DNA of 64,000 nt, taken from assembly GCA_965153455.1 (NCBI GenBank), contig OZ234494.1:6014001-6078000 (forward strand). The letters are read 5' to 3'. Below the pieces are notes generated by a model. It saw only the letters and a program-made list of their open reading frames with translations. It made no database searches and was not told the origin of the DNA. Made by a program: the position numbers and the translations under genes. The DNA is from Sphagnum compactum (taxonomy: Eukaryota). Positions within the stretch are counted from its first letter, which is position 1, and every line of letters starts with the position of its first letter. Positions 1 to 52,153 of this stretch are shown here, in pieces.

Positions 1-2337
1 GTTGGACACCTGAACTACATGAGCGCTTTATCGACGCTGTCACTCAATTGGGTGGACCTGATCGTGAGTTTCCCTTCTATCAATTGTACCTTTTATTGTG
101 CTCTTTAGTATTTGGTAGCCTTTTTCTCAGAGACTGGCAACTGCTTGTATTTTAGTGTCTACGAAAGTGGAGATGCCATTAGGCTATGGGCTTGACCAAA
201 GATGGCTACCAAACAATAGTCAATTTTTGGAATGTTTGAGCCATTGGATCAGTTACATTTGATGGTCCAGGTTTTTGGTCTAAAACCCAGGGGAGGGTAG
301 ATGCTAAGTCAATTTTTGGAACATTTGAGCTGTTGGTTCAGTTCCATCTGATGGTCCATGTATTTGGCATAAAACTAGGGGTAGGTAGGTGTGAGTTGTA
401 AGAAGGATGCTGAATAAGGCAGTCACTATGTCTGGCAGCTCTTTTTGCAGCACTGCCACCACCAAATTCATACAATTTTTTCTTCCACCATTGTTTGACC
501 TAACATTTCTGCTTCTCTGTGCCAATGGCAGGTGCGACTCCAAAAGGTGTACTGAAGGTCATGGGTGTGCAAGGTCTTACAATTTACCATGTAAAGAGTC
601 ACTTGCAAGTAAGTTAAAAAAAACTCTATAGAATTACCCTACCATGCTGCAAAAGGCATGCTGTAAAATGGGTCAGGAAATGGGTTTCTTTTTTAATTAT
701 GTAGACCACATTCTTGTTTCAATGGATAGTATGTCTGGAGGATGTTCCTCTGTTTGAGGGCCTAGGAACAGGGCAGGAGTCGAAGTTCTTTGTGCCTGAA
801 AACAGAGGAATGCCCTCTGGACTGGCCTTTCTCTATGTAAAACATTGACCCAATTTGAAAGGAACCTGCTAGGAGGATGACCTTACAGATTCATAAGCTC
901 CCAGCCTGCTTAAAAGTTCTTCTGTGCAAGGAAGTGCCTGCAAATATGAAGAGAAATTTTGGTCAATGTTTTACATACAAGCAACAGGGTATATTGGTAA
1001 CAGAATGATTGGTTTCTTTTTCTTGTACCACATTTAATCAACCTTCACAAAAATGTAGACAAAGCTCATGCTTCTGTAACCAAATCACAAAAAAATTGGT
1101 CTACAATGTGAGCGATGGATGTTGAAGCTTTTGACTGTATTTCATGTTTCTTTTTGCACACTGCAGAAGTACCGGTTGGCAAAGTATATTCCTGACTCTT
1201 TATCAGATGGTACATTACTCTTCTTTCCTGCACTGTCATGGAAACGCTCTTCCCTACATCCCCCACCAACCTTAACCAGAGAAACTGAGTTCTATCAGTA
1301 AAATTCAGAATGGGTTGCGAGTATTACTAGTAATTGATAAGATTGTGATTTAATGAATTAACACTTGAAACATCACTCCATGTCATCACACCTCAATCCT
1401 TTCTTTTGCAGGAAAATATGGTTTTTCTTTCTGCTAAAAGAAAGCTCAATTTGAGTGAGAAAACTTGGTGATAATTGTGTTCATTTATCTTTATGATACA
1501 TGTCGAAATTTGGCGATTGATGACTGGTGTGCATAATAGGTGGTGCAGGAGGCATTTCTGACAAGAAGAACCCAGCAGACATGTTTCCATCTCTGGAACC
1601 AACATCGTGAGTTTTGGCTTCTGTACCTTAAACTTTGTGTGTGATAAGATACTAAGATCTATGATATACACATATATTATAAATCTCTTGCATCTACATT
1701 CATGGGTCTGCCTTCTATGAATTGTCTCCTTGCCAGTTGTCTATTTCGTAGAGATCAGCACCGAAAGGCAATGTTGTGTTGCAAATCTTATCAGGGGTAT
1801 TCAAATTACGGAGGCGTTGCGTATGCAAATGGAAGTGCAGAAGCGTCTGCATGAGCAGCTTGAGGTACAATGTGTCTTTTTGATGCTCTAGTTTGTGGCT
1901 TTAGACCAGAGGCTAACTGCCAGCCTTCAGACCTTCGCAACAGAGGGACAAAAAGAGTTAATGGAATGAAAGTATGTTACATTTATAGGCTATAGGTGAT
2001 TCCTTTTGAGGTCAGAAACAAACTGAATATCAGCTCTCGGATATAGGTCCAACGCAATTTGCAACTACGCATTGAGGCTCAGGGGAAGTACTTACAGCAG
2101 ATTATTGAAGAGCAGCAGAAGCTCAATGCCCTCAATAGTACACCTATAGCCAGTGATACTGATGAAGCTGCGGCCCCAGGTTTTAAGCCACCACTTGCTG
2201 AGACGGTTGATAAGGTGGAAATCAAGGTGCCACCTGATATAACAACTGAGGCCCCTGGTCCATCTGGTAGTCTGGTACCAACTGAAGCTTCTGGACTCAA
2301 CTCACAGACCCCACAATCTGAGTATGCTAAAAGTTAG
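1..2337 (+). CDS. PHR1-like (PHL) MYB-CC / GARP transcription factor, 5'-partial. Exons 1-63, 532-608, 1167-1209, 1540-1606, 1795-1864, 2047-2337
   Basis: Spliced translation gives [56 protein letters not shown] (SHLQKY-class Myb domain) and [45 protein letters not shown] (LHEQLE coiled coil). All introns are GT-AG with matching phases. The start codon lies upstream of the window. Confidence 0.95.
218..381. repeat. Tandem duplication (~89-bp period, 2 diverged copies) in PHL intron 1
   Basis: agtcaatttttggaatgtttgagccattggatcagttacatttgatggtccag (from 218) recurs as agtcaatttttggaacatttgagctgttggttcagttccatctgatggtccatg (from 307). Confidence 0.8.
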
Positions 2338-4003
2338 TATGAAGGTGCCATAACATTCACACATCTATCTGTGCCAGGTGGTTTGCCACTCCAGCCAGTA
2401 ACAATCAAAACTCAACTAGAAGATGTAGTAGGTGAATCAGTTGAGGGACAGGAATCATCTGAGACAGCTCAGGCTGCCATTCAATTTTGTTTACTGGTTC
2501 AGGGACATGGAGGTGGATCATTGCAACCAAATTACTCAAGTCTCCCTCAAGAAACTAGCTTTTAATCTCCCCAGGATGAAGGTTCTCATCATCAAAATGC
2601 TGAGTCCGCAGAGTTACTCCAAGGGCAACCTCCAAAGATTTTACACTGTACAAAACAATGACCATAAAAACCTTGTCCTCTTACAAATGCAAGGTCCTTG
2701 GAGTCAGGCTCCTTCAAGTTAAGCACTATCGGTTAGGATGTAATGCAAATGAACATCTGACATGGTGGAAAGAGTGGCTGCACACAACTAGGTGTCAGAA
2801 GGGTGTTACATGCAATGGTTAATCCTCTTAAAACTTTTGGATTTGGAAGTTTTCCTCCAATTGGATCATCATCTTGCACTTTTGGCTCTATAATGCCTTT
2901 TTGCTGCTCTTAAGGAGCACAGACAAAGTCATACGTTGCTATGAACTAGATTTGCACTTGCAAAAGATTTTGACATTTTCCACCTTGATGTGTCCTTAGC
3001 ATAACCTAAAGTAAGAGTCATCTGCTCAGGTAACAGAACTAATTTGCAGAAGATCCAGCAGCTTCAACTCAAAAGCTCAATTTGAAACCTAGATTCTTCA
3101 GTTGAACAACTGCTGAGTTACACCATAGCAAGTTGAGTACCATGGCATTAAGGATATTTTTTGTTCACACCAATAATATAAGATAGTAAAAAAGAGGGTA
3201 GGGAAACAACTTTTACAACTGCAGTGAGCAAGGCTCATGGAAAAACCCAATGGTTGTTGGCATGGGTGTAACCAGGAGATGCTTGTATGTCCAGTTGTAA
3301 ACATTTAGGTCAAAATTTGTCATAGGCTATTTGATTGAAGGCAATCTTATTTTATAATATAACGTATAACAACACACCAAAACTTCACTTCCCATCTTTT
3401 GTACGTGTAAAACAAACATCACTTGGTGTTAGCTAAATCATCACATTCATAACAAATATTTGTGTTTTCCAAGTCACAATCATAAACCCTAGGACTTATG
3501 AATAGGGCTAGCAAACCCACCAAAAACCCCATACATTATTTCAATTGTGCACCCAAAAGACAATTTTGTTGAGAAGAGATGATCTACTGTAAAAACACAC
3601 GAATATCTGTCACTGCTCTTGAACAAGTCTAGTGACCCCTGCAAAAGTCTTAACCCTAATAACACAAAACACTCCTATTCTTCTTTTGGTACAATACACC
3701 AATACTTAGTAATCATCACCCAAATCACAATTCTCTTCAATATTATTCATTCCTTGCCATGATCATAATACTAGCAAGGATTAGAAGCAGATTTCATTAC
3801 ATCATCCCAAAATCTACTGGTACATATTTGTATACAGCAAAAAAACCATCAAAGACAGGATTTTGGTGGGGTGCATCCATCCCCACCCTTGCTCAGTGAC
3901 GACCATTTGCAAAGCAAATAATGTTCTCAAAGCAAAACAAGATGATCCTACCTTGAGAGAGGGCTGTTGCAAGCCAGACAGGTAGTTTTGGACTTTTGTG
4001 GAT

Positions 4004-4724
4004 TCATGAGGTGAGGTTGAGCTGCGATCGTTTGGCTGCATACCGCCATGCATCTGCCTCCAATTTTTGCTTCTCTCTCCTCAGGGATGCTAATAAATCC
4101 TCCATCAATGCTGTGAAGCAAAATCAAGTTCCTCAGTCAATAATTATATGTGCATCCATCCCTTTGGGATATTGAAACTGGTTTGTGGCTGACATGAAGA
4201 ATGATGTCTTGGATGCTTGAGAAGGAAACAGAAAGAAAACGAAACACACAATGTGTTGGATGCTGGAGAAGAAAAACCACAGGAAGAAACAATATCTGTT
4301 CGATATATATTTCTCAAGAAGAAGAAGAACGACAACGACAACAAAAAAAATTCCTCATAAGAAACATAATGTGTTGGATGCTCGGGAAGGAAGAAACACA
4401 AATTTGTCTTGGATGCTTGAGAAGAAGAAAAAACAAACAAGGAACAAGGAAGGTCTTAGATGCTCAAGAAGGAACACAAGAAATGTGTGGGAACAAATGC
4501 GTGCGTGCGTGCGAGCTCGCTCGCGCACCTTGCTCAGTCTCGGCCTTGCGATCCAGAGTGAAGGTTAGATCTTCGGCCAAGCGATCCAGGAGCGCACAGT
4601 CATCCTGAGGTGCCATAGCTGCTGCTGCTGCTGCAGCAGCAGCAGCAGCAGCAGACGTTGAAGCAGCAGATGAGGATGTCCCCGCGCGCATAGGCGACGG
4701 CAGCATCGAAGAAGCCCCCTGCAT
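4004..4724 (-). CDS. SAMBA: SAMBA-like APC/C-associated small protein, 100 aa. Exons 4724-4529 and 4110-4004
   Basis: A phase-1 GT-AG intron (CAAG|GTGCGC ... TTCACAG|CA) joins MQGASSMLPSPMRAGTSSSAASTS(A)nMAPQDDCALLDRLAEDLTFTLDRKAETEQ to ALMEDLLASLRREKQKLEADAWRYAAKRSQLNLTS*. The size, low-complexity N-terminus and C-terminal R-K..DL..L....LE.D.W....RS..L.S pattern match angiosperm SAMBA as I recall it. Confidence 0.8.
4200..4490. repeat. Imperfect minisatellite in the SAMBA intron
   Basis: About 5 copies of a unit resembling tgt(c)ttggatgct(t/c)gagaag(g)aagaaacaca. Confidence 0.7.
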
Positions 4725-5638
4725 GCCGCTCCTTCCTTGTCGTCCCTTCTTCTTCTTCTTCTTCTTCCAAATCCCACTACTGTTGTGTCGTGGTGACTCT
4801 CTCCAGGGCGGCGAACTTCGCCCTGGACCGGCAAATGGTTCGAGCGGTGGGGCCGGGGCGGGCGCGCGGGCGGGCGGGCGGATGGAAGAAGTTTCTTGTG
4901 CGGGTGACGATGTGATGCAATTGGGGTGGATGGAAAGCTCTCACGTTGGTTTCTCGTGTCGTGCAGATGGATCGGCGGAGATGAAAGAAAGCAGGGTGAC
5001 GACGCACGCAATCCATGGCTGTCGACGGAGTTCGTTGGCAACGGACGAGAATGGGCCAGGAAACGTAGCCGGAAGTCGAGTCACACTGCCAGGGAAGGAA
5101 GGAAGGAAGGAAGGAAACGAAACGAAACGAAACGAAACGAAACGAAAGGGAAGGGAAGCGAAGAAAGAAGAGGAGTTTCGGAAGATGCGCCTGCCGCACA
5201 GAGGGGGAGAGAGAGCGAGAGAGGTAGGTCCGCCGACGACGAGGAGGCGCGACACGAGGAGGTGGCTCGCTCGCTCGTTCGTTCGCTTTTCTGGTGCGGA
5301 GCAGACTAAAGAATAGGTGGCAATCTGATTGCCGTTTGCTTGTTCGCTCGCTGTGCGCAACAACACACGGTGCGAGAGGAGGGCGGATTTTTTTGTGGTA
5401 GTCAGCAGATTGTAGTAGAGCAAGTGCCGCGGCCTTTTGTGTTTTGTATTTCTTGCTGCTAGCTACGTATATTGCTCAGCTGCGCTGCACTCCCGCCTGC
5501 CCGCATTTTGTTGCGTAGGTAGGTGGGTAGGGTTTGGCAAGTTTCTTTCTCTGAAGCAGCAGCAATAATCTTGGGTCTGTCTGTCGAGCGTTAGCACTGG
5601 AGATTTGTGCACCAGTCAACCAGCCAGCCAGCGAGGAA
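4725..5638. promoter_or_regulatory. Shared divergent promoter / 5' UTR region between SAMBA-like and RING-H2 genes
   Basis: The two ATGs are ~915 bp apart, head-to-head. The region is GC-rich with (GAAAC)n, (GGAA)n and GGGC repeats. TSSs are not determined. Confidence 0.55.
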
Positions 5639-8600
5639 ATGAAGGCTTCCACCGGGAAAGAGGGTAGTGGTGGACCTGTGGAAGTGGAACTGCCGTTGAA
5701 GGGATTTCTGCCTCGACGCGGAGGAGGAGGAGGAGGACCTGCCGCTGCATCGAGGCAGAACAACCGGGGAATGGAGGTGGGAAACAAGTATGACGCTGCT
5801 GGTGGTGCTGGTCATCATCATCATCATGCGATGGAGGAGGAGAGAGTTCCAGCAGCAGCAGCGGACAAGGGAAAGCTTTCTGTAAGTACAAACCCCACTC
5901 GTCTCTCTTTGTCGGGGCGTCAGATCGAGCAAAGTTCCCGTCGCCTTTACCATGGTAAAGCTGGCGTCGACCTCGATTCCAACAACGGTGTGGCCGCTGC
6001 GCAAACAAGCTCTATTGTGATGATGGACGCTGAAGAAGGAAGAAGAAGAAGCAGGAAGAAAGCTTGGTTGCACAGCACACATGGTAAGAACCCTTTGATG
6101 CTTTTTTGCATGCACAGTTGTAAGTCTCTCCATCTATGTATGTCTGGATCTCAGAGGATATGGCAACCCTGATTAGGAAGAATGCCAAGGAAATTGTGGT
6201 CTCTCAGATTCAATTCTTGGAGGTCCTGGTGATTCGGGAGCTTTAAATTAGAACTGAAGAAGAAGAGGTGCTCTTCTTCTTCTTCAGGACTTGTGCTACT
6301 TTCTGATTCTTTGCTCAATGATGATGTCGTCCGATTGTTGCATCTCACCTTTCTATGCTGCTTTTGTGCAAACCAGATGCAGATTTGGAGTTTGGATTAG
6401 CAAGTGGCTCAAGCAATGTGCCGGCAGCTGTGGTAACCGAACAGGAAGGTGAAGAAGGTGAAAGGCCTGTGACCATGGATCAGGGAGAGATTCGGCCTCC
6501 TGGGAACTCTTCAGAAGCAGCTGGAGCAGAGATTGTCCAAAAGGTTGGGATGGGTCTTCGGTTGTATACAGGGAAAGAGAGAGCACAGTCACATGACAGC
6601 AGTGATAGCGGTGATGATTCAGGAAGGCAGAGAACTAGGTCTTGGATTCCTGGTTCAGACAAACAAAAGTTTGCCCATCCAGCTTCATCAATAGACAGAG
6701 AGAACATATATGGAAACTCTTATGTCAGCAGGCTTGGCAAGGAGTCGAGTGTTGCTGGTAGCAGCTCTGCAGTCGAGTATCAGTTACCAGAAGAGAATGG
6801 AACAGAGATTGAGAAGTGTGAAACACCTCGCACTCGACTGTTACTGCCGTCACTTAATAATAGCAGGATATCTGGACAGAGTGGTGTCTTGCTTGCAGAG
6901 CAGCAGCATATCAGACATGATGCAGTAGCTTCTTCAGGAGATGTCTCTGGTTTTCCAGTTGATGATAAGAAACTCCACAGTTTGAGAGAAAAGAAAAAGA
7001 GGAAACAAGTTGAAATGCACGTTGCAGTGGGTGACCCTCAAGGGCCCCTCATTCACCAGCCTCAAGCTGTAGCAGCTGGCTCAGAGGAAGAGATTTTGCA
7101 GCCAGCGGTTGGTTTGACAAGTTTGACATTGAACAATGCTTGGAGTCGTCCATTGGAGCATGCTACCAGTGTTGATAAGACTGGAGACATGGGCCGAAGG
7201 AAGCGGCTTAAAGAGCATGCTGGAGATCTTTCCCTTTCTAATGCAGCAAGTGCTATGCAGGAGGTGGTGGATTTGTCTTCACCATCTCCTGACACTCATG
7301 GAATACAAAGGTATGAGTACTTACATGGATTATATCAGAAGCAATTGAGTTGCTCACCAGCTCCTTTGTATGCCGCCTCAGGCAAACAGTATTTCCATTC
7401 CTTTTGTGTCTTCCCTGAACATGCATATGTATGACTGACACTGTTGTTCAACCTGCTCATTAATTCTGTTTTGTGGTCTGGTTTTCTCTTCGGGGTGGGG
7501 TTTCCTCTTTTTCATGGTTGCTGACACTGTCTGGTTTTTGCATCAGATCTGAAATATCCCAGTTCCTTATTACATGCTTGTATCCAAATTCTTTTCAGGT
7601 TGCCTTAAATTTTAAGTATTGAGAAATTCTCATGAAGATGATATTTATGGATTCTGAAAACCAAGAGTAGAAGTGGGTTTTGTGGGTTGAATGTTGAATC
7701 TTGTTGCCACTCCAGTAGAAAGAGAATGGATAAGTATTGTTTATTCTTTCTTTATAACCTTGAAGGTAAGTCAAGTAGTGAGAAGTTGCCCAGAGTTCAT
7801 AAACCTACTCCTATGTTATGGAGAAAAGGTCTGAAGTCTTCAGGTCCTTTAATGCTGCTTACAAGGTTAAAGCAAAATGTGACCCTTGTCTTCTTTTGTG
7901 TTGCTTGGAAGTTCCATAAAATCCCCATGAAGCTGAAATGCATAAATGGGGTCAGTTCCTCTTCTCCCAGAAGTTTTGAAGTGATTAAGCTCCTTCTATA
8001 AAGCTATCCTGCTGGTGGTCAATCACCTTTGGGTTGCAGGAAGGTTTTCCCTCACATAACATAAGTTGGGTTATCTAAAACTCCCTGGGGGGCAGTTGAA
8101 AGTTCTCGGATCTCTCAAGGTCTAATGCTGACAGATCTTCTCCCCTTCTGTTGCAGTCCTTTGATTTCTCAACCTCTCCTCTTTCTTTGTTTGGCTGGCA
8201 CACCACTCTTGTCCTCTATGTTAGTCATTGGATGCTCCAAACTGTGCCCAGGAAGATGGCATTCTGTTATATGCTTGTGATCAGTCCACACTTGATTCAA
8301 TAATATGCTTATAAAGAAGAATGTCTTGTATCTGGCATGTTGGTAGGTTCTGCATTGTCCAAGATCTTCAGATAACTGTGACAATTGCATTCAAGGGAGT
8401 CATTTTTCAGATATTCAGGGCCAATTCTGATCAAGGAAGTGGTTTGTTGGTTACTGGGCACAGTGGACATGCAAGACTTCTGCATAACAAACCAGAGGGG
8501 AGGGTAACATCTCCTGAACATGCTCTTAATGGATATCAAACAGAGGGATCTGAGGAACTACTCATGGGTGGACACAGTACCAGGTCTGCCAGGACTAGTG

Positions 8601-11600
8601 TTCCAAGAAATCCAAGATTATGGTATGGCTCCAGCTCACAGGCTCTGGGTTCATCAGCAATGGCACAGTACAGTAATAGTAATAAACTTGGACACTTTGC
8701 AGGCTTGTTCATTCAAGGCAGTGATGTGCCGAATTCTTCTTCAGGGGTCTTTTCTGGAAGAGAGCTTCATCTGGGCTCAGGAAGGGAGGTATCTCAAGAT
8801 GTGATAGATCTTGCTAGTGATGATGGCAGGAGCCAGCTAGAGATGTCGTCTTCATTTCCACATGACCACAGTGGAGAGTCAGGGCCTTCACAACATTCTG
8901 GAGTCTCTGTTCCAAGGAGATCTAATCAGCGTCACCTCTATGGATATGCCCAACGGGCCAGGAGCAGGGTTAATCCTCAGGAACCAATTGACTTGGAAGA
9001 AGACTATCCACTTCGGAATGACATTAGTCAGAGTATCCCATGGGATGGGAATTCAGTACAAGCTCTTGCAGAGCCGTACACTCTACGGAGCAATCAGAGA
9101 GTAAACACCGGTGCTTCAAGAAATAGTAGCTCATTGGAGCCGGAAGACTCAAATGATCTGCCAGTGCAAGAAGATGGTTCTCAATCAGGTAGGAATTGGT
9201 TTTTGACTACAGCCTCAGGTCTTGGGTTCTCAGAGTTATGGAGAGGTTTGTGTAGGCAGGTGGGATCTGTGAGGGGGGAAGAGAGTGGGGACCTGGAACT
9301 GGCCTGGTCCATGGAGCTGGATGACCCAAACCCAACTATGGTAGATTCTTGTACACCTGAGACCAGGATTGCCTTGGATGATGATGATGCAGATACTGAA
9401 AGATCACGCCAGTTGGCTGAAGATGAAAGGCTAGCTCGAGAGCTGCAGGACTCCTTTGTGTCTGAAGCAGTAGTAGCAGATCAAACACCGGTACGCATTG
9501 CATTTATTCAGGTTGTAGATGGAAAGATAGGACTTGGGGGGTTTAACTGTTGCTTGGCCAGCGTATTCTTGGATGCTTAAATGTTTGTGTTCTGTGTTGA
9601 ATTTATAGTGTAACAGCCCAAGTACTCTAAGTAATGGATGTAGAAGCTCCAAGCATGCTGCTTTTGCTGTGGTTTGACTGGATGAGAGTGATTTTTCTAT
9701 GCTTGAATAGAATAGCTGTTAGATCAGAGACTCAGAAGCAGGATGCATGATGATTGGGATTCTGTGTTGGTGGGGTCATTAGGATGATGAGGTTTTGGCA
9801 AGAATGTTGCAAGAGGAAGAGAATCTGCATGGGCGAAGACTTCCGATCATGTACCCTGGTGCTTCTGAGATGCAGGTTAGTTGGTATTGTTTTATTTTTA
9901 CAGTGTATTTATGGCATGTTTGTTGGTGTGACATGAACATCTGGAGGTTTCCCACTTGCCAGAAATTCCATTTTGAGCATTGTGACCACTCTATCCCATT
10001 GCTTGTTTTTAGGTTGCTAGGTCCATATAAATTATTTGAATGCACTAAAAGTGACTTATGTATATATCCTGTGTAGGAATTCTTGGCAGAAATGGGGAAT
10101 CAAAGGGAAGCACGAAGGGCTTGGCGAACTGGATTGACACAGGCCCAAACCGAACAGTCAGATTTCTCTGCATCAACCTCCAGGGTAGCACGCTTGCCTG
10201 TATATGGCCGCAGTGCTGCACTATCCCGCACAAGAAGTTTGTATCCTGCATTTTCAGCTTCAATAAATGTAGAGCAAACAAGGGCTCAATTAGCCATGGC
10301 CCTGGAAATGGTATACTTATTTCTCCTGTGTTCCGCTCTACCATATGGCTTTTTTGCTGCTTTACTTGGGAACCTTCTTTCCATTTTGTTCTGTTTTAGA
10401 GGTGCCTGGCCCTGAATTTTACAGAACTGTGTATAATAGGCTGGAATCATGAGTGCCTGTGACAAATGTTTCTGTCAATCCAGCTTGTTATAAATGACAT
10501 GTTTCATATAGTGTTTGAACAGTTCTTGTTAATTTGCATAGTGTTATACTGGTGTGAATACAGAGGTATGCAGCATTGGACGCTTTCCAGCAGCAACTCC
10601 CTGTAGGTTTACAGCTCGCACATCTTGACAGAGATTTTAATGAGTATGTCAGCTTATTCTCACCTATTCATGACCCTTGTTGCTCAGTCATGGATCCATC
10701 ATGAATGTCTCATAGTATTTCTGAAAAATTGCATTGGTACTCAGTCTGCATGGTCCTCTTGAAGGTGATATTTTGTGAGACACTTGTAAGGTTATGATTC
10801 ATTCTTGCGGTGTATATTATTGGTATGCTGGAACTGACATAGTGCTTACCTTTGAAGTGTTATTGTGGAGTTTTCTTTGCAATCTCATAGAAAGACTTGG
10901 ACACTTCAGGTGGAAATATTTGCATATAAAGTATTTGGCAAGAGTTGTGCTCAGTTTGAAATATTTGCACTGAATTTTTTTAAGATTGGTACCACAGTGG
11001 GCCTTTTCCAGTCGGGGCAATGACCTTCCATTGTGATTTTGTGTTTCATCATGTGGGCAATTTGACGTTGACACTTTATGGTTGTCTTTACTGTTGCATC
11101 ACAGAAATGATTACGAAATGTTGCTGGCATTAGACACAGACAATGATGCACACCGTGGTGCATCTCAAGAGAGCATAGGGTTATTGCCAGTCACAACAAT
11201 TGCAGTATGCATCTCCCCTATTCCTGTTGTTGTTGCACCCTGGGTTGGATAACTTTCCACTTGGTGTTCTTTGAAGATTTCTTATAATCTGCATTTCCTT
11301 GACATAATTCTAATTGCCAATTGCTGCTTATCAACTATGCTAGGGTTGTAAGTGCTCTTGGTTTAGATGGATTATCTGTACGGATTGTTGCACTAAAGTT
11401 GTGTTTGCATGACTTGACACAGCCCACAGATGTGTGTGATGAGAGCTGTTCCATATGTCTGGAAGTACCAGCAGCTGGAGATGTGGTTCGCCGCCTGCCA
11501 TGCATGCATGCTTTCCATAAGCAGGTTTCTCTGAGATGCTTCTACTTCACCAGATTGGGGGACTCAGTTTTACTGATATTGTACTAAGCAGTTACAAATT

Positions 11601-11931
11601 GGGTTGTGTGTTTTTTTTTTTTGAATTTTGTAAGAAGACAGATGCCTGTTGTAGGAACACCACAGACAATTTGTCACAGCTTAAAAGTTTGGGTTTTAGA
11701 TAATTTTAGCTGATTAGCAGGGTTGGATTTGTTTTGGATTTTGATTAGAGATTCCCAATGACTGTACTATAAATATTGGTAGAAATTATGTCACATTCAA
11801 ATGAAGGTTGTGGATGTTTAGCTGATTAGCAAGGTTGGATTCTTACTTTCATTGTGGTGGGTGTGGGACAGTGTATAGACAAGTGGTTGCATCATCAGGC
11901 TGTCTGCCCTGTTTGCAAGGCCCACATCTGA
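5639..11931 (+). CDS. Large RING-H2 E3 ubiquitin ligase, ~1039 aa, with C-terminal DRDF..DYE.LLALD + RING (AT1G04790-like from memory). Exons 5639-6083, 6377-7310, 8419-9490, 9783-9875, 10077-10310, 10564-10643, 11105-11204, 11423-11524, 11872-11931
   Basis: All junctions are GT-AG and in phase; the CDS totals 3120 nt. The C-terminus reads [32 protein letters not shown]...[45 protein letters not shown], a canonical C3H2C3 RING. The 5' exons and start are less certain than the 3' exons; an alternative exon-2 acceptor exists at 6383. Confidence 0.9.
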
Positions 11932-13929
11932 AGCTGTTATGGTGACATATCTTAATTCAAGTACCCAGCTAGGCTGAGGCACGTGCAGACTTGTATGAAG
12001 TTAGTTGCTAAAGTATTACCTTCTTGGAAGCAAGTCAGCAGAACAGCATGTACTTACAGAGCAAGTTGTAAGCGTGGCTTGTGGGGAATGTGGGGGGAAT
12101 TACCTCATTTGCGAGGTGTGGACTTTTCCATAAGGGTTTGGACAATGGGAGCATGCCAGCATAGTTGAAGGACAACTATCTCAGGCTGACTGGTGGTGAA
12201 TGCACACAACGGAGATCAGTACTGACAGTTTCGGTAGTTTGGTTGTCCTGAGAGTGCTCCTGGTCAGATTTTTGTGAGGTGAGGATGTTGAATATACTGT
12301 GTTGACCCTCTCAATGAGAGTGTTGCAAATTTCCAAGAAGCTGAAATCTGTTTTCCAGACTCTGGATAATCATTCTTAATGGAGAATGGTGTGTGCCTTT
12401 CAAGGTAGAGAACTCACAGGCAGTTGTTTTTCTCAACTCCTAGACTGTCCAGAGTCCTCCACAAGGAAGGTGTATTGGCAAGATGTACACAATTGAGGAG
12501 CTGTTGTAGTGATGGTGTCTATCCTGCTAGTGTTGTTCATGGATATGTTTGACCAAATTTAACCATGAAATTGTAGAGTTGATCACCACTGTCTTGATAC
12601 TCTTTGATAATATCTGTATTATCAGGGGAGGTCTTTTCCCCAATTGAAAGTAGCTTTACTGGCCAAGAAACAATACAGTTCATGGAAGAAGGGCAAGTTT
12701 CAGAAAACCCTTTTGGCATAATTCTGACATGGTCTTTCTATGTACTAATCTGTGAAAGCTTGCTTACTTCCTTGGGTCACTGGAAATGTCCTTGGATCTG
12801 AATTCCTGCAGATCCTCACCTATAATTGGTGAATTTTATATTGTAGACCGTGACTGAGGCTTTGGCCTTGTGTCCTCTGCAATATTCTAGTCTCTTGTTT
12901 GGGCATTCTGTTCTTGTACTGATATTCAAGTTGCCCACAATGCATCCAGTAGTACTTCATGTACCACCACCCATCTGGTCAGGCATACAAGACATTGATA
13001 TGATGGCCAAGTTGAACAGAGGAGAAGAGCAGACCACTACAGAGGAGTGGGGAGGGTGCTATTTGCAGGCTGCGCTTGGAGTGCAGACCTGAGTAAACCT
13101 TGGCCATGTTGAAGAGAAGAGTGTTACAGACCAGGACAGACAGAAGGGGACAATGGCAAAGCATCTGGAGGAAAGATGTGGTGCACAAACTGTGCTTCTG
13201 AATGTGCCAATCCCACACAATAAGGTGCATGAATCAGCCCAATGCCCAAATTTTGTTGGCTCTGCCCCTCACAGGGAGAGACTATGGAAATGGTGGCTAC
13301 TTCATTTGGTCCGTCTGACACATTGTTCAAGTTATTAAATTTCTAAAATAATTATGAATAATTCTCAAAATTGAACATAAAATATGAGGAAGACAATTTG
13401 ATAAGAGGAGGGGTAAGATGGGATTTTGAGAGTTTTGATTGTGTTTTTTCCAATGTTGGACAATTTTAAAATTAAGGATAGATAAATCTCAAAAAATCGG
13501 GGAATTTGTGGTTGTGAAAAAATTCAAAGATTTGTTTAAATTGATTTTTTCTCCTTTCCATTTAATAATCCATACATTCACAATTTAGATCCTTTATTTG
13601 AATCTTATTATCATTATATTTTAATAACCTAATATCATTGCATAATCTATTCATCCCATCCACCTCAAAACCCCATTTTTTTTTCAAAAGAAAAAAAAAG
13701 ACCTTCATTGGTTCTATGGAAAACATATAAAACAAAATTTTAATGCCCAAATTTAATTTAGAATATTGCCATGGGTAGGAACAAATGAGACCACAAGTTC
13801 AAGTTCACTAAATTTTTTTGGAAAAACCCTTAAAATTCCTAAAAACAAAGTTGAAAATCCTTGAACTCCATCAAAACAAATCTTAAAACCCCCAAATTTT
13901 AAAACAATGCCCCAACATTATTTCCCCCA

Positions 13930-27699: not shown

Positions 27700-30600
27700 T
27701 CTTCTACCTATTTTAAACTTTTCCATTAATTCCTATATCAACTGTAACGATTTCTATTATTACATTGGTTGATGGTTTGTTATGGTAGACTTTTAATTTA
27801 TTAATATTTGCTCTTTCTAACCCCTCATCATTTATGGTTGACAATTCCACAATGTTGTTATCAAACATTTTTTGTATTTTAAAAGGACCCTTCCAAGGTA
27901 ATGTAAATTTACCCTCCTCAACTTGTGTGGCTTGAGGCATCCAAAGTATAAACTCTCCTTCTTAAAAACTTTTCATCTCTCCTTTTTCATCCCGATGTTC
28001 TTTGCGCAATAACTTAATGTGGTTAATATTTCCTCCAGCTTGCCAACAAGTTTCATCTAGTCTAAATAAATCTTCCATCTTTACTTTGATAGCTTTGTCT
28101 AGTTTTTCATGTGATAAATCGTGAACTTTTTTAGGTGGGACTACAAATTTTGTCGGCATAATTGGTTGAGTGCCATAAACCAACTCGAAGGGTGTATATT
28201 GAGTTGTCACTTTATAAGCTATATGATATTACCCATAAAGTAGTGACTAACATTACATCCCAATCCATCCAATTTGCATTTCCCAGTTTGGCTAATATTT
28301 TACCCAATGTTTTGTTAATCGATTTGGCTTTGCCCGTTCCCTTGTGGATAGTAAGTTGTCGACTTATGATGTGAAATCATAATTTTTTTCACAAATATTT
28401 CAATAGTTTTATTAATGAAATGACTGCCTTGGTCACTTATAAGATGGGTCAGCCAAAGTGAATAATAATTTGCTCATAAATAAATTTAGTGTTGCTTTTA
28501 GCCGTATTATCCCGAAGTGCTTTTGCTTCTACCCATTTAGTAGTATAGTCAGTTGCTACTATGATATATTGATTTCCAGTATATCTTGCTACCGATTTGA
28601 TTGGTCTTATAAAATTAAGACCCCATTTCATGAAGGTTCAAAGGCCATAACTAGTTTGAATGACGTTTTACCACTTTGCCATATAGGCTCTAAACATTGG
28701 CAAATGTCACAGCTTTGATAGAACTCAATAACATCTTTATGCATATGGGCCACCGATAACTTGGCGATAACATTTTTTAAGAATAATATTTGTGCAAAAA
28801 TGCTCGCCAGCTAGCCTTTCATGGAAATCTTCCAATATTTTAGACGCCTCTTTGGAAATAAGCATTATCATAAGACACCATCCGGTACTAACTTATATAG
28901 TTGTTTGTCATATAATGTGTAAGGTTTAGCCTTTATGACTATTTGACTTCTTTCCTTTTTAGATACATCATTGTCAAAATATCCTTTCTTCAAATATTCT
29001 ATGATTGGGCCATACCAATCAACTTGCACATAAAATATATGAACATTAGGTAATTGATCATTTCTTACTACTTCCAGTTCCCCATGACTAATTCTAAACA
29101 AGTGATCTGGTAAGAAATGAGCTTGACCCAATTTGTAAACAATTTTAAAATAAAATTCTTATAATACCAAAAGCCATTTGGCAATTTGACCTATTATTGT
29201 CGATTTTTTCACCAAATATAATAATGTTTGATGATCTACAAAGAAAATAAAGCTAATTCGTAATAAATAATGTCTGAATTTCTTCATAACATATATCATT
29301 GCTAAAGCTTCTTGTTCAGTTGTTGTGTAATTTTTTTTTGCATTATTCATAAGTATGCTTCCATAGTATATTGGTCTACCAATGGTATTATTTGGGTTTT
29401 GACCTAACATAACCCCTAGTGCAAAATTTGATGAACCGACATGCACATGAAATTTGATTTTCCAGTTTGGTACCATTAACAATGGCAAACAAGTCATAGA
29501 TGTTTTCATCCACTCCTAAGATTTATTACAAGCTTCAGTCCATTCGAATCCTTCATCTTTCTTTAATGGTTTGCACATGGGTGCCGCTTTGTTGGCAAAG
29601 TTTTGGAAATAACACCAATAAAAACCAGTTGTTCCTAAAAATATTTTTATTTCTGTCACATTAACTGGTACTGGCATTGTAATGATTGTAGTAAGTTTTT
29701 TGGGATCCACTAATAATCCATCACTATAAACAATTTGTCCAAATAAAACACCCGAATTAGCATAGAATGCACATTTTTCAGGGTTAAGACTTATCCCATT
29801 TTGTCTACATTCTTTTAAACAATTTTGTAATTGACTTAAGTGGTCCTTTTTATTTCCATATACACTAAAATCATCCAAGAATACTTGCATAAACTTAAAT
29901 ATTCCTTAAAGGCTTTGGTCATCACTTTTTGAAAAATGGCATGAACATTACATAACCCAAATGGCATAACATTATATGCATATGCACCCCATTCTAAAAT
30001 TAAGTTTGTCTTTTCTTTATCTTTTTTTGCCATTTTCACTTAGTTGTAGCTGCTATAATCATCCATAAATGAGTACATCTCATGTCTAGCCACTGAGTCA
30101 AGAATTGAATCCAATAAAGGTAATGGAAATGGATCCTTCTTGGTTTGGGCATTTAATTTTCGATAATCCACACATATATGCAATTTGCCATTTTTCTTTG
30201 GCACAATTACTAGAGGGGATAACCATTAAGTGGTTTCTATAGGATATATAAATCCAATGTCTAGTAATTTATCAAGATCTTCTCTAACTCTTAATGCATA
30301 ATTTGGATTCATTATGTATGGATTCTTTATAGCTCCATGCAAAAACATCTATGTACTCCATTAACACCTTTTTAATTTGTGTTTGAAATACACTTCGTAG
30401 TATGGCATTTATTAATACTTCTTTAGGTTATTTTTTGCTTCCCAAGGTGAGTTTAATTAGTTGTACATTCTTCAGTTGTCATTGTTTAACCATCAATCTT
30501 TTTATTTTTAACAGTGATGTTGGCAACTTTGTTTATTATTAAAGCTTCTCATAGTTGATGCTCATAAAAATACTCTGGATAATCAACTTTGTTTTTTCGT

Positions 30601-49438: not shown

Positions 49439-50517
49439 CCTCGTCGCTGCCGAGCGTCACTGATTGCGGAGGAGGAGGAGGAGGAGGAGGAGCAACAAGC
49501 CCAGTAGTAGTTCTGCTACTGCTGCTGTTGCTATTGCTGCTGTTAGTTGTATATACACTTGTTGTTGTTGTTGTTGCTGCTGCTGCTGCTGCGACTCGGC
49601 TACAAAATGTTAATGTTGTTGCGCAAACGGAATTTGAATACGCGCTGTTTATACAGTTACAACAGTTGTCGTCCTCGTCGTTGTTGTTGTTGTTGCTAGA
49701 TTGCTGCTTCTGCTGCTGGTCATTGCTGCACTTGTTGTGGTGGACTTTGCATCAGGGGTTGTGGATGAAGAAGAACATGAGGGAAGAAGTTTGTTGCAGC
49801 CCTGTCGTCGAGTGCAGCAGCACCAGGACTTGGTGCAGGTGTCGTAGTAGGATCACGGGTAGTCGTCGTAGTAGCAGTAGCAGTACTAGTACTAGTAGTA
49901 GTAGTCAACGTAGTAAGCTGCTAGCCGGAGGAAGGGAGATCATCAGCAGGAGGATTGAAGCTGTAGAAGTCAAGCTGCTGCTGCTGCTGCTGCAGGTGAT
50001 GATGATACGCGGCGTTTTGGCTGCCTCCAGCTAGCTAGCTCCCTTTGTTGAAAATCAGCAAGTCGAATGCCTGCTGGAAGAAGAAGAAGAAGATCAAGAA
50101 TGTTTCCAAGAAGGAGATGAAGAGGCGGAGAACTGCAGGTGCGTGGCAGAGATTTGGGGAGACTACTAGAGTAGACTAGAGTAGAATACACTAGAGCTGC
50201 TGCTGCTGCTGGCTTTGCCAGGGTACAGGAAAAGGATCATCAGGTCATCAGGCGGCGACAGCAGCAGCAGTCGATGGTAATTGGGTAGAAAGGCTGAACT
50301 TGAGAGATCACTCGCCTGGGGAAGGAGGAGGAGCAGAAGAAGAAGAAGAAACAGGAGTTTACAGATCCCGTTTTTTTTGCTTTTGTGGGTCGTAGTAGCT
50401 ATCAAGCTAGTACTACTACAACAACAACGAGGAGCCAGCCTGGGCTGCAGCAGCAGCAGCTGCTGCTGGTGGTGGTGGGAGGACGAGCTGGAGGAAGAAA
50501 GAAAGGAGGTGGAGGTT

Positions 50518-52153
50518 ATGGGTCGCGGCAAAATAGAGATAAAGAAGATTGAGAATCCAACCAGCAGGCAAGTGACATTCTCCAAGAGGCGCGGCGGTTT
50601 GTTGAAGAAAGCGCACGAGCTGGCGGTTCTGTGTGATGCAGAGGTGGCTCTCATTGTGTTCTCCAGCACTGGCAAGCTGTTTGAATTCGCCAGCCCAGGC
50701 AGGTAGGAGCTTCTGCAAGCAGGAGAGCAGCCACCAACACCAAAAACACACAGACACAGAGAGAGACAGAGAGACAGAGAGACAGAGAGTCACACACACA
50801 CACAGAGAGACACAGAGAGGCTCTTCCCAACAAGAGCTTGGCTTGTTGATCATTCCCTACTGCTGAAGTCCTGATGATTGTGTTTGGTGAATTTTCCTGA
50901 ATTGCAAACAAAAGGATTTGGTACAATCTATCCTTGCAAAGAAAGATTGGTACCACATCCTATTGTTTGCAAAAAAAAGAGAAAGATTGTACCAAATCCT
51001 TTTTTGTTTGCAAACAAAAAAGAAAGATTGTACCAAATCAAATCCTTTTTTTGCTTGCAAACAAAGAGAAAGATTGTACTGAATCCTTTGCAAATTATGG
51101 TAGTACTAAAATCCTTGTGAAGATTTGTACCAAAATTCTTGCTCAGATTGTCTCCCCAAGTCTTTAGCAGTAAGCCACCTGACCCAGGTTGTAGCAGATG
51201 CTGCTGCACAAGTTTGAGGAAATTTTACATATGGGAAAATTCCATTGATCAAAATGGGGGTCCAGACTTCAGAGAGTTGTGATTTGAGTATCATCTTGTT
51301 GGTGATGCAAAAACCCACAGCAACTTCTCTTTTTCTTTTTTCCTGTGTTTTTTTTAAACTACTGGAAAAATTCTTGCAAGAAGAAGTTGGGCATCAATTT
51401 CTTACAAAAATTCATTTCTAAGATTTAGCTGGCTACAAGGGAGGAAGAATTGTACAAATTACAGTGTGTCTGTTTTTTTTTTCCTCCCGTTTTTTCGGTG
51501 GTTCATTTTGAGTATTGGATGCTTACCAGTTGGACCTTGTCCTTTTTGTCCTCATGTGCTAAATCCTAATTCTGAATTTTCTTTTTCTCCCTTACAATTT
51601 TTTCTCACCTACATTGTTCTTCACATCCCAATCAGTTTGGTAGAAATGCTGAAGCTCCCAATCAGTTGCTAGAATGCTCAAGCTTCGATCAGCATCAGGA
51701 GCAGCCGCTGCTGATTGTGAGAAGCTAGCTGACAACAAATTTGTAAAATGGTTGAAAAAATGGTTCAGAAATTCAGAAATGTGCCCCCTTTTTTTTGGTT
51801 TTAATCGTGGGGGGGGGGGGCTTTGATTTTTTGAGATTTTTGAATCTGTAGTTTGATTATGAGTTTTCCAGATGAGAGAGAGTCTTCTTTACTAATTCAT
51901 TCCTTGGGTGGTGTTTTTTCTTTTCTTTTCTTTTTTTGCCCCTTGGCATTGTCTGTGATTATCAAAATCATCAAGCAGTATGCGAGATATTCTTGACAGA
52001 TACAACAAGTGTCCTGATGGAGTGCAAACAGGCAGCAGCAACAGTGATGTAAGAGTTTTGGGTCCTTCAGCAGCATTCAATTTTTCCTTGCAATTGATAC
52101 ATTTGTTGTTGGTAGGCTTTTTTTCTTTTTTCTTTTCTTTACAAGGCTTGTTT

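Follow-up and report, generated by a model that had tools for sequence, protein, structure and literature searches.

A RING-H2 protein of Sphagnum compactum with SIM-like and MIU-like motifs, a candidate reader of SUMO and ubiquitin marks in a conserved streptophyte family

Can a single plant polypeptide combine docking elements for SUMO and for ubiquitin with the RING finger of a ubiquitin ligase (E3)? The question is raised by a spliced and transcribed nuclear gene on the + strand of a 64,000-nucleotide stretch of Sphagnum compactum DNA (GenBank assembly GCA_965153455.1, contig OZ234494.1, positions 6,014,001 to 6,078,000; hereafter, the window), in which a first-pass annotation had noticed four strings resembling SUMO-interacting motifs (SIMs), two helices resembling motifs interacting with ubiquitin (MIUs) and a C-terminal RING-H2, and had proposed a SUMO-targeted ubiquitin ligase (STUbL). 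The answers reached here differ in strength. That a conserved, uncharacterised, streptophyte-wide family of RING-H2 E3 proteins exists, to which the gene belongs, is near certain; that a SIM plus tandem-MIU reader module has been built into this E3 is plausible on the conservation of its motifs; and that the protein acts as a STUbL, or as a reader-writer of hybrid SUMO-ubiquitin chains, is given a probability of about 0.4.

The family emerges from searches at several depths. With the C-terminal 255 residues of the Sphagnum tenellum protein as query, 136 of 6362 candidate proteins with lengths of 546-1740 amino acids (aa) matched at E<=1e-5; the matches listed (120) include Ceratodon, Physcomitrium, Marchantia, two Riccia species, the fern Adiantum, the conifer Araucaria, many angiosperms and Klebsormidium, and below these plant matches come animal Arkadia/RNF111 proteins, aligned over no more than the RING (51% identity, 18% of the query covered). 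The Tarenaya member, used as a further query, led to Brassicaceae orthologues of 588-645 aa; the Arabidopsis one is presumably At1g04790 (634 aa). The exon query 8420-9490 retrieved one protein at E<=0.001, an ‘unnamed protein product’ of S. tenellum, with 96% identity (6487 candidates, 626-2000 aa). When a profile of 24 orthologues was compared with 1.84 billion representatives, 244 were found at E<=1e-30, and the 41,720 found at E<=0.001 correspond to RING fingers generally. The names given in the sources are all automatic (‘RING-type domain-containing protein’, ‘RLIM’, ‘SDIR1’, ‘RNF6-like’), and the ESM Atlas returned generic ‘RING-type domain-containing protein’ clusters only. One family protein per liverwort species was aligned, and there are three Physcomitrium matches of differing length. 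Two further conserved stretches may be recorded here: the island at 8471-8521 (+) aligns with the seed-plant stretch G(Q/R)KRLVRNGCISPxNIA, and seed-plant orthologues share an N-terminal xVVDVPDTPDR that is absent from the moss.

The protein ends in a RING-H2, as had been noticed at first pass. The finger, which is split between the last two exons, is complete (C-X2-C-X14-C-X-H-X2-H-X2-C-X10-C-X2-C), with all eight ligands and the Trp of IDKWL kept; its first half matches the Pfam families zf-RING_11 (E 1.3e-9) and zf-RING_2 (E 1.3e-6), both above the cut-off. The other five exon translations submitted gave no Pfam match above the cut-offs, and the N-terminal ~520 residues are without a Pfam match. 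Ahead of the finger stands a YEELL-type motif, which here reads YEMLL, and a Pro precedes the third RING ligand (LPC). An hhalign comparison between the plant family and nine Arkadia sequences gave one match (probability 98.6%, E 5.5e-16, 86 columns, 42% identity; plant columns 748-833 against Arkadia 903-1004), which starts at the YEELL-type motif / FEELIHLEERLG and ends at the RING end. Within it, the stretch from the YEELL-type motif to HRGAS pairs with Arkadia FEELIHLEERLGNVNRGAS, HRGAS itself being paired with NRGAS, and the N-terminal and middle regions of Arkadia (the SIM1-3 block and the His-rich region) find no match in the plant family. In the PDB, the best matches of the family profile are the RINGs of ARK2C/RNF165 and Arkadia, at ~1e-18, followed by Arabidopsis RMR (AT5G66160), RLIM and RNF13, at 1e-17 to 5e-16; no RNF4 or Slx8 chain is found among the best 60 of the 70 matches, the top ones being RING-H2 fingers of the ARK2C/Arkadia/RLIM/RNF13 type.

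The CTL class, defined by a YEELL motif together with a RING-H2, takes in BIG BROTHER, RNF38/44, RNF165 and the STUbL RNF111 according to the portion of Jimenez-Lopez et al. 2018 (PMC5764321) available to us; 19 Arabidopsis CTLs are given in its supplement, and At1g04790 is not among them. As judged from finger and motif together, the Sphagnum protein is a RING-H2 E3 of the YEELL/CTL class, the class of Arkadia/RNF111, and by the same comparisons it falls outside the RNF4 and Arkadia families in the strict sense. Of the two architectures with which the locus had been compared, that of Arkadia is homologous in the YEELL/RING-H2 portion, a likeness that is, however, class-wide, and the finger is not of the RNF4 type. 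The type of the finger also bears on the idea that the protein serves the SUMO pathway without being a STUbL, as a SUMO E3/E4-like enzyme or a SUMO/ubiquitin adaptor comparable to maize MPEL1. In the available text of PMC13324008, MPEL1 is the closest maize relative of AtSTUbL1, it SUMOylates MAPK16 and its loss lowers SUMO conjugates; yet MPEL1 is grouped with the small RNF4-like STUbL1 proteins (AT5G48655), outside the RING-H2 family dealt with here, and the present RING is not an SP-RING but a canonical RING-H2, of the Arkadia type that binds E2~Ub, so that we regard such a role as improbable.

The case for a reader attached to this ligase, whether of hybrid chains or of ubiquitin alone, begins with the two LAxxLQ helices, which, on the alignments, are the strongest feature of the protein and the best conserved one outside the RING. 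The MIU consensus reads acidic-x-x-L-A-x-x-L-Q-x-acidic, with a central Ala in a single helix, and is reportedly owed to Penengo et al. 2006; both Sphagnum motifs fit it, central Ala included. Residues Q431, D435, E436, A439, L442, Q443 and E449 (Physcomitrium numbering) are invariant in 24/24 orthologues, the consensus of the 24 sequences over the region being RARQxExDExLARxLQE ... DExLAxxLQxEE. Among 105 full-length-like representatives, 54 proteins have one match of the LAxxLQ type, 49 have two and two have three, and the helices stand a median of 181 residues ahead of the RING. AlphaFold2 was run on the Physcomitrium orthologue (P0004), rather than on the Sphagnum protein, with the 24-sequence alignment. 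It modelled helices at 425-451 (first motif; block-mean predicted local distance difference test, pLDDT, 81-94) and at 459-473 (second motif), the further confident parts being a helix at 564-581 and the YEELL-RING region. The mean pLDDT of the model is low (51.9) because most of residues 1-411 lie below 50, and the N-terminal ~420 residues of this orthologue are predicted to be disordered.

The sole recurring non-RING Pfam family is CCDC50_N, which falls over the tandem in 9 of the 24 members with a best E of 0.01, all below the cut-off; in P0004, it covers residues 428-472, i.e. both helices, with 10 bits against a cut-off of 27. CCDC50 has tandem MIUs that bind K63 chains, as stated in the accessible part of PMC13059773, and the profile positions matched here may be those of the MIUs. 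In RNF168, according to what is available of PMC2699339, replacement of the central Ala by Gly inactivates each MIU. That the LAxxLQ helices bind ubiquitin is somewhat likelier than the full STUbL or hybrid-reader interpretation.

The SIM-like motifs need to be treated one by one. By a SIM match we mean agreement of sequence pattern with the SIM consensus, which does not by itself make a SIM, the PIAS-type pattern being V-I-D-L-T. Of the four strings singled out at first pass in the disordered region, three are exonic matches to the pattern, and only DVIDLASDD is conserved at the same place in other bryophytes. In a bryophyte-only alignment, it is paired with EVIDLGGDSPQ of Ceratodon, DVIDLADDLSP of Physcomitrium and [RG]VIDLVSPE of Marchantia and Riccia, and the sequence around this DVIDL-type island is not alignable across bryophytes; the liverworts possess a second copy, QIIDL[IL][ST]PE, 16 residues upstream of [RG]VIDLVSPE. 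Among vascular plants, the matches P0010 and P0014 read N[IV]VDLT[GA]DSPQ and the Solanaceae orthologues PVIDLTKQSGS. Two of the other strings, EVVDLSSPS and EPIDLEED, are present in S. tenellum and may owe their presence to chance; the fourth, RIALDDDDA, is spliced out of most transcripts, as described below. The expectation that the motifs would stand as conserved islands in variable sequence is thus borne out by both MIU-like motifs (24/24) and by DVIDLASDD, but not by EVVDLSSPS and EPIDLEED, which are confined to Sphagnum. In the Physcomitrium model, the SIM-like motif falls in a region of pLDDT below 50.

At the level of the family, the number of such motifs can be compared with chance. 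The cores counted were of the form [VI][VI][DE][LIV], upstream of the first LAxxLQ, with shuffled sequences and the reversed motif as controls. In the 24 chosen orthologues, for which the count used the first gene model (acceptor 8419, 9189-9392 read as exon), 29 cores were found against a shuffle mean of 2.5 (maximum 8; 0/500 shuffles reach 29) and four reversed ones, 18 of the 24 proteins having at least one core. The count was extended to 105 of the best 150 representatives, since 45, most of them fragments, were without LAxxLQ, a RING match or 200 upstream residues: the 112 cores that it gave compare with 11.9 on average in shuffles (no more than 24 in any of 300) and with 14 reversed, and at least one core is present in 80/105. 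The cores are also placed in a preferred position, in that 47 of the 112 fall 20-59 residues ahead of the first LAxxLQ; a strict core is found 8-70 residues ahead of it in 50/105 proteins against 2.05 expected (maximum 6), and a looser pattern of hydrophobic core plus acidic/Ser/Thr in 76/105 against 19.6 (maximum 31). After the core, the commonest residues are D at +1 and E/D at +2, then L/T and S/P, as in VIEVDELSPE and PIDVDSLGSP. As a matter of sequence pattern, the SIM-like excess is beyond chance at family level, and relatedness weighs less on the forward:reversed ratio and on the fixed position than on the excess itself.

To whom these cores would offer themselves is a separate matter. 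It is a real, if tentative, possibility that the protein is a ubiquitin-binding CTL RING-H2 ligase that is not SUMO-targeted, the helices serving chain extension or recruitment as in RNF168/RNF169, and the [VI][VI]D[LV]-SP islands docking another partner or being phosphorylated for it. CTL members such as BIG BROTHER are, in the part of PMC5764321 at hand, not STUbLs. The same possibility is favoured by the MIU-like motifs being better conserved than anything else outside the RING, by SIM-like cores that differ in number and place between lineages, and by the Ser-Pro or Thr-Pro that often follows the cores and also fits sites of proline-directed kinases. The core with its acidic/Ser flank fits the PIAS-type SIM, however, as does PVIDLTK of the Solanaceae, and the 112 forward against 14 reversed cores, together with their fixed position ahead of the first MIU-like helix, argue for a specific beta-strand ligand; no result here points to an alternative one.

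How the Sphagnum gene itself presents a SIM-like element to the helices depends on its splicing, which was followed over window positions 1-12400 in one raw polyA RNA-seq run bearing the same species label (X24) and in the metatranscriptome contig sets X1, X2 and X13 (moss or plant); 15 of the 28 splice joints found in these data are listed. The junction 9188>9393 (GT..AG), carried by 13 raw reads of X24 and by contigs in 3/3 metatranscriptomes, removes 9189-9392, so that RIALDDDDA, assigned to the protein at 9368 by the first-pass annotation, is absent from most transcripts. Mean depth falls from 23.6 in the bin before, which is all exon, to 8.9 in the bin holding this segment, as expected if most transcripts are spliced. 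The translation of the segment is nevertheless collinear with the Ceratodon and Physcomitrium proteins just upstream of the first LAxxLQ, at E 4e-14 and 8e-14, respectively, when the downstream exon part is included and at E 0.001 when only the segment's own 44 residues are used: an 11-residue stretch pairs with VNLDEPDSPTLV, and RIALDDDD, which has a collinear counterpart in the two mosses, with TIVLEDDG. The segment looks like former or alternative coding sequence that behaves like an exitron. Since the stretch homologous to that of the other mosses sits in it, the main isoform lacks a MIU-adjacent SIM-like motif and keeps the distal ones; indeed, no strict core is found within 62 residues of its first MIU-like motif. 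One may go further and imagine an E3 of pre-land-plant streptophyte origin, composed of a SUMO-docking strand, tandem MIUs some tens of residues behind it and an Arkadia-type RING-H2, in which the 204-nucleotide (nt) exitron would toggle the SUMO element in Sphagnum and give isoforms differing in reading specificity, a scheme that we consider unlikely in its entirety.

The splicing result also feeds a deflationary account, namely that the Sphagnum SIM-like strings are neutral in an acidic, Ser-rich disordered region and that function resides in the RING alone, or perhaps in the RING and the MIU-like helices. RIALDDDDA is spliced from most transcripts, EVVDLSSPS and EPIDLEED are the property of Sphagnum, and the chance expectation, at 0.09 per shuffle, is low yet nonzero. 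Against these stand the alignment of DVIDLASDD across bryophytes and the roughly tenfold excess of cores throughout the family, and we hold this account to be improbable.

The STUbL interpretation put forward at first pass is left with the conservation of the key motifs and with a SIM-like element ahead of the MIU tandem in about half of the representatives, and it has lost ground in that two of the Sphagnum SIM-like motifs are lineage-specific and one is spliced out. If it is nevertheless correct, SUMO would be bound through beta-strand addition by the type-b-like cores, in which [VI][VI]D[LV] precedes acidic residues or Ser-Pro, the pair of LAxxLQ helices would act as MIUs on the Ile44 patch of ubiquitin, and the RING would ubiquitinate nuclear proteins marked by SUMO or by both SUMO and ubiquitin, with exitron splicing modulating the reader. 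The protein would in that case be nuclear; its KKKRK patch resembles a nuclear localization signal.

Several observations weigh against this interpretation. Of the three SIM-like motifs encoded in exons, EVVDLSSPS and EPIDLEED are matched in no other genus of the bryophyte-only alignment, and the Brassicaceae representative in the 24-sequence count is without a strict core. The motif excess is inflated by shared descent, because the controls preserve composition and not relatedness. The CCDC50_N matches stay under the Pfam cut-off, and phmmer searches of the two MIU exons against the PDB gave 0 and 5 matches, nothing relevant being among them. The likeness to Arkadia is no sign of SUMO targeting by itself because it is common to the whole CTL class, BIG BROTHER and RNF38 included; it is restricted to the 86 C-terminal columns, nothing upstream of the YEELL motif being aligned by hhalign, and the PDB margin of ARK2C/Arkadia over RLIM/RNF13 is small (1e-18 against 1e-16). 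Finally, architecture is no guarantee of STUbL activity in plants, because the maize STUbL1 homologue has been reported, in a paper of 2026, to be a SUMO ligase instead. Should the motifs bind neither SUMO nor ubiquitin, the gene would be one more uncharacterised RING ligase; should they bind both, plants would have a large, deeply conserved RING-H2 ligase with SUMO- and ubiquitin-type docking, unlike the small RNF4-like AtSTUbL1 and AtSTUbL3, and a tractable entry to how mixed SUMO-ubiquitin signals are read in these organisms.

The exon structure on which these statements rest is collected in table 1. The six motifs and the RING-H2 reported at first pass can all be read on the + strand, displaced by no more than 3 nt from where they had been placed, and the stop-to-stop open reading frames (ORFs) of 6325-11931 (+) hold every motif string quoted.

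Table 1. Exons and exitron-like segment of the RING-H2 gene (window coordinates), with the joint leading to the next exon and its support in the RNA data (UTR, untranslated region).
Feature	Position	Strand	Content	Joint and support
exon 1	5173..6083	+	5' UTR, possibly N-terminal extension; contigs span 5173/5177-6083; 5' end approximate	6083>6377: 12 raw reads (X24), contigs X1, X2, X13
exon 2	6377..7310	+	ATG 6475 (MDQGE...); KKKRK 6991-7005; EVVDLSSPS 7261-7287	7310>8464: not found among the 15 joints listed of 28
exon 3	8464..9188	+	predicted disordered; conserved island 8471-8521; DVIDLASDD 8798-8824; EPIDLEED 8981-9004	9188>9393: see text
exitron-like segment	9189..9392	+	204 nt, in frame, stop-free; encodes RIALDDDDA 9365-9391 and MELDDPNP	
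exon 4	9393..9490	+	first MIU-like helix, core 9419-9457, central Ala 9434-9436	9490>9783: 13 raw reads (X24)
exon 5	9783..9875	+	second MIU-like helix 9783-9821	9875>10077: 8 raw reads (X24)
exon 6	10077..10310	+	linker; conserved helix AQLAMALEM at its end (Physcomitrium orthologue: helix 564-581)	10310>10564: 9 raw reads (X24)
exon 7	10564..10643	+	R, D, F invariant in 24-orthologue alignment	10643>11105: 15 raw reads (X24)
exon 8	11105..11204	+	YEELL-type motif 11106-11135, then stretch matching Arkadia NRGASQGTIE	11204>11423: contigs X1, X2 only among listed joints (none in X13, no X24 raw reads)
exon 9	11423..11524	+	RING-H2 first half	11524>11872: 11 raw reads (X24)
exon 10	11872..11931	+	RING-H2 second half and stop TGA 11929-11931; 3' UTR past 12400	

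The gene comprises ~10 exons, and its transcript extends from ~5173 to beyond 12400, read depth being 20.6 in the 3' UTR at 12007-12400. A first exon model was built by hand on GT..AG sites and then corrected with the RNA-seq data. The extent given at first pass, from 7264 onwards, proved too short at its 5' side: the gene begins upstream, the exon 6377-7310 being joined to one that ends at 6083. Exon 1 is open in the frame of exon 2 and contains in-frame ATGs at 5639, 5771, 5831 and 6020 by ORF analysis, and the N-termini of moss orthologues align with the MDQGE start in exon 2; since the start codon is uncertain, the protein measures roughly 775-956 aa, the main isoform from ATG 6475 having 775. 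An X13 contig covering 6376-7310 stops at the exon 2 donor. We infer that the acceptor of exon 3 is 8464 rather than 8419, our first guess, either being compatible with the frame: the ends of two X13 contigs fall at 7310 and 8462, and the corresponding S. tenellum protein sequence is ...THGIRSGHARLL. A short intron from 9177, 9189 or 9199 to 9255, 9259 or 9273, which would have removed the RNWFLTT... stretch, was also considered; the frame is preserved in just two of its variants, 9199-9273 (75 nt) and 9199-9255 (57 nt), neither of which is among the listed joints, and the observed junction 9188>9393 makes the proposal moot. The joint between exons 8 and 9 is given by the contigs as 11205>11424 (TA..GC), 1 base from a GT..AG pair.

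Upstream of the RING gene, window positions 1-2500 (+), with a transcript to ~4112, hold the 3' part of a gene for a Myb-CC (PHR1-like) transcription factor, recognized by WTPELHERF... from position 3 and by a match to the LHEQLE motif at 2047-2337 (Pfam E 1.7e-9), with junctions 63>532, 608>1167, 1606>1795 and 1862>2045. In a public S. tenellum model, the Myb-CC and RING genes are joined into one; this fusion is unsupported by the reads and was rejected, since they connect 6377 with the exon that closes at 6083 and the transcript of the Myb-CC gene runs to ~4112. Reads of opposite orientation over ~2070-4970 (-), with a junction 4110>4529 (CT..AC, 24 reads), indicate a minus-strand transcript, which runs across the 3' part of the Myb-CC gene and, in a GC-rich stretch (GC content 0.53 at 4001-6000), is divergent from the start of the RING gene. 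Three stretches of ~35-45 nt, at 4316-4350, 8129-8171 and 10850-10891, collect tens of reads whose ends, at one side or at both, lie in unrelated sequence (69/66 at 4316/4350, 34/29 at 8129/8171 and 32 at 10891), and they look like short repeats common to abundant RNAs from elsewhere. Farther along the window, an AT-rich stretch at 29162-29905 (-) contains a degenerate retrotransposon copy (RVT_1, E 6e-6; reverse transcriptase-associated RNase H, E 6e-24), and an ORF at 50281-50703 (+) encodes a MADS-box (SRF-TF, E 3.4e-27) and is probably the exon that opens the coding sequence of a MADS-box transcription factor gene. Rfam gave 0 matches over the whole window, and no SUMO or ubiquitin gene is found in its 64 kb.

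How far the protein resembles known systems can now be considered. The RNF4 RING is dimeric and C3HC4-like. RNF4, Slx5-Slx8, Rfp1,2-Slx8, AT-STUbL1 (AT5G48655) and AT-STUbL3 (AT3G07200) share with the Sphagnum protein proposed SIMs in a disordered N-terminus and a C-terminal RING, but they are small, have a RING of another type and lack MIU-like helices. A plant STUbL would not be new as a kind, because six AT-STUbLs, coming from a SUMO two-hybrid screen, have been described in the sources available in part, where rescue of S. pombe rfp1/rfp2 mutants is reported for some of them, with differences among the sources as to which. The same partial sources identify AT-STUbL2 as AT1G67180, the BRCT-RING protein DDRM1, and AT-STUbL6 as AT2G44410; the Arabidopsis orthologue of the present family may be AT-STUbL4 or AT-STUbL5. 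Plant STUbL roles are called virtually unknown or extremely limited in the accessible passages of reviews, and the literature searched, which lacks the gene codes of AT-STUbL4 and AT-STUbL5, yielded no description of a SIM-like element combined with a tandem MIU-like module and a RING-H2.

The plant CTLs BIG BROTHER, MBR1/2, JUL1 and RIE1 are alike in having a YEELL-type motif beside a C-terminal RING-H2, the LPC sequence and intron-rich genes; the motif of the Sphagnum protein is, by contrast, YEMLL, and SIMs or MIUs are not described for plant CTLs in the available portion of PMC5764321. Among animal CTLs, Arkadia/RNF111, itself a STUbL, and ARK2C/RNF165 likewise have the C-terminal YEELL-type motif, an NRGAS-like stretch and the RING-H2. 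Arkadia also has a long disordered N-terminus with cores of the VVDL/VIDL type, its consensus showing AEVVDLTVDEDE, but that consensus is without the LAxxLQ tandem, and the plant family is without the His-rich region; the SIM-like motifs of the two, if real, were probably acquired independently. Single helices of the LAxxLQ type are found in RNF168/RNF169 and CCDC50, with an essential central Ala (PMC2699339) and in tandem (PMC13059773), as far as the available parts of these sources go. RNF168 differs in its N-terminal RING and its histone targets, and CCDC50 in having no RING.

RAP80 is a reader of hybrid SUMO-ubiquitin chains in which a SIM is followed by two ubiquitin-interacting motifs (UIMs). 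It differs from the family described here in having UIMs rather than MIUs and no RING, and the main Sphagnum isoform has its proximal SIM-like stretch spliced out; the two have in common a SIM-like element that precedes, by some tens of residues, a tandem pair of helical motifs of ubiquitin-binding type. Under the scheme of an ancient E3 considered unlikely above, the family would provide a single-chain reader-writer of hybrid SUMO-ubiquitin chains, in which RAP80-like reading is joined to STUbL writing.

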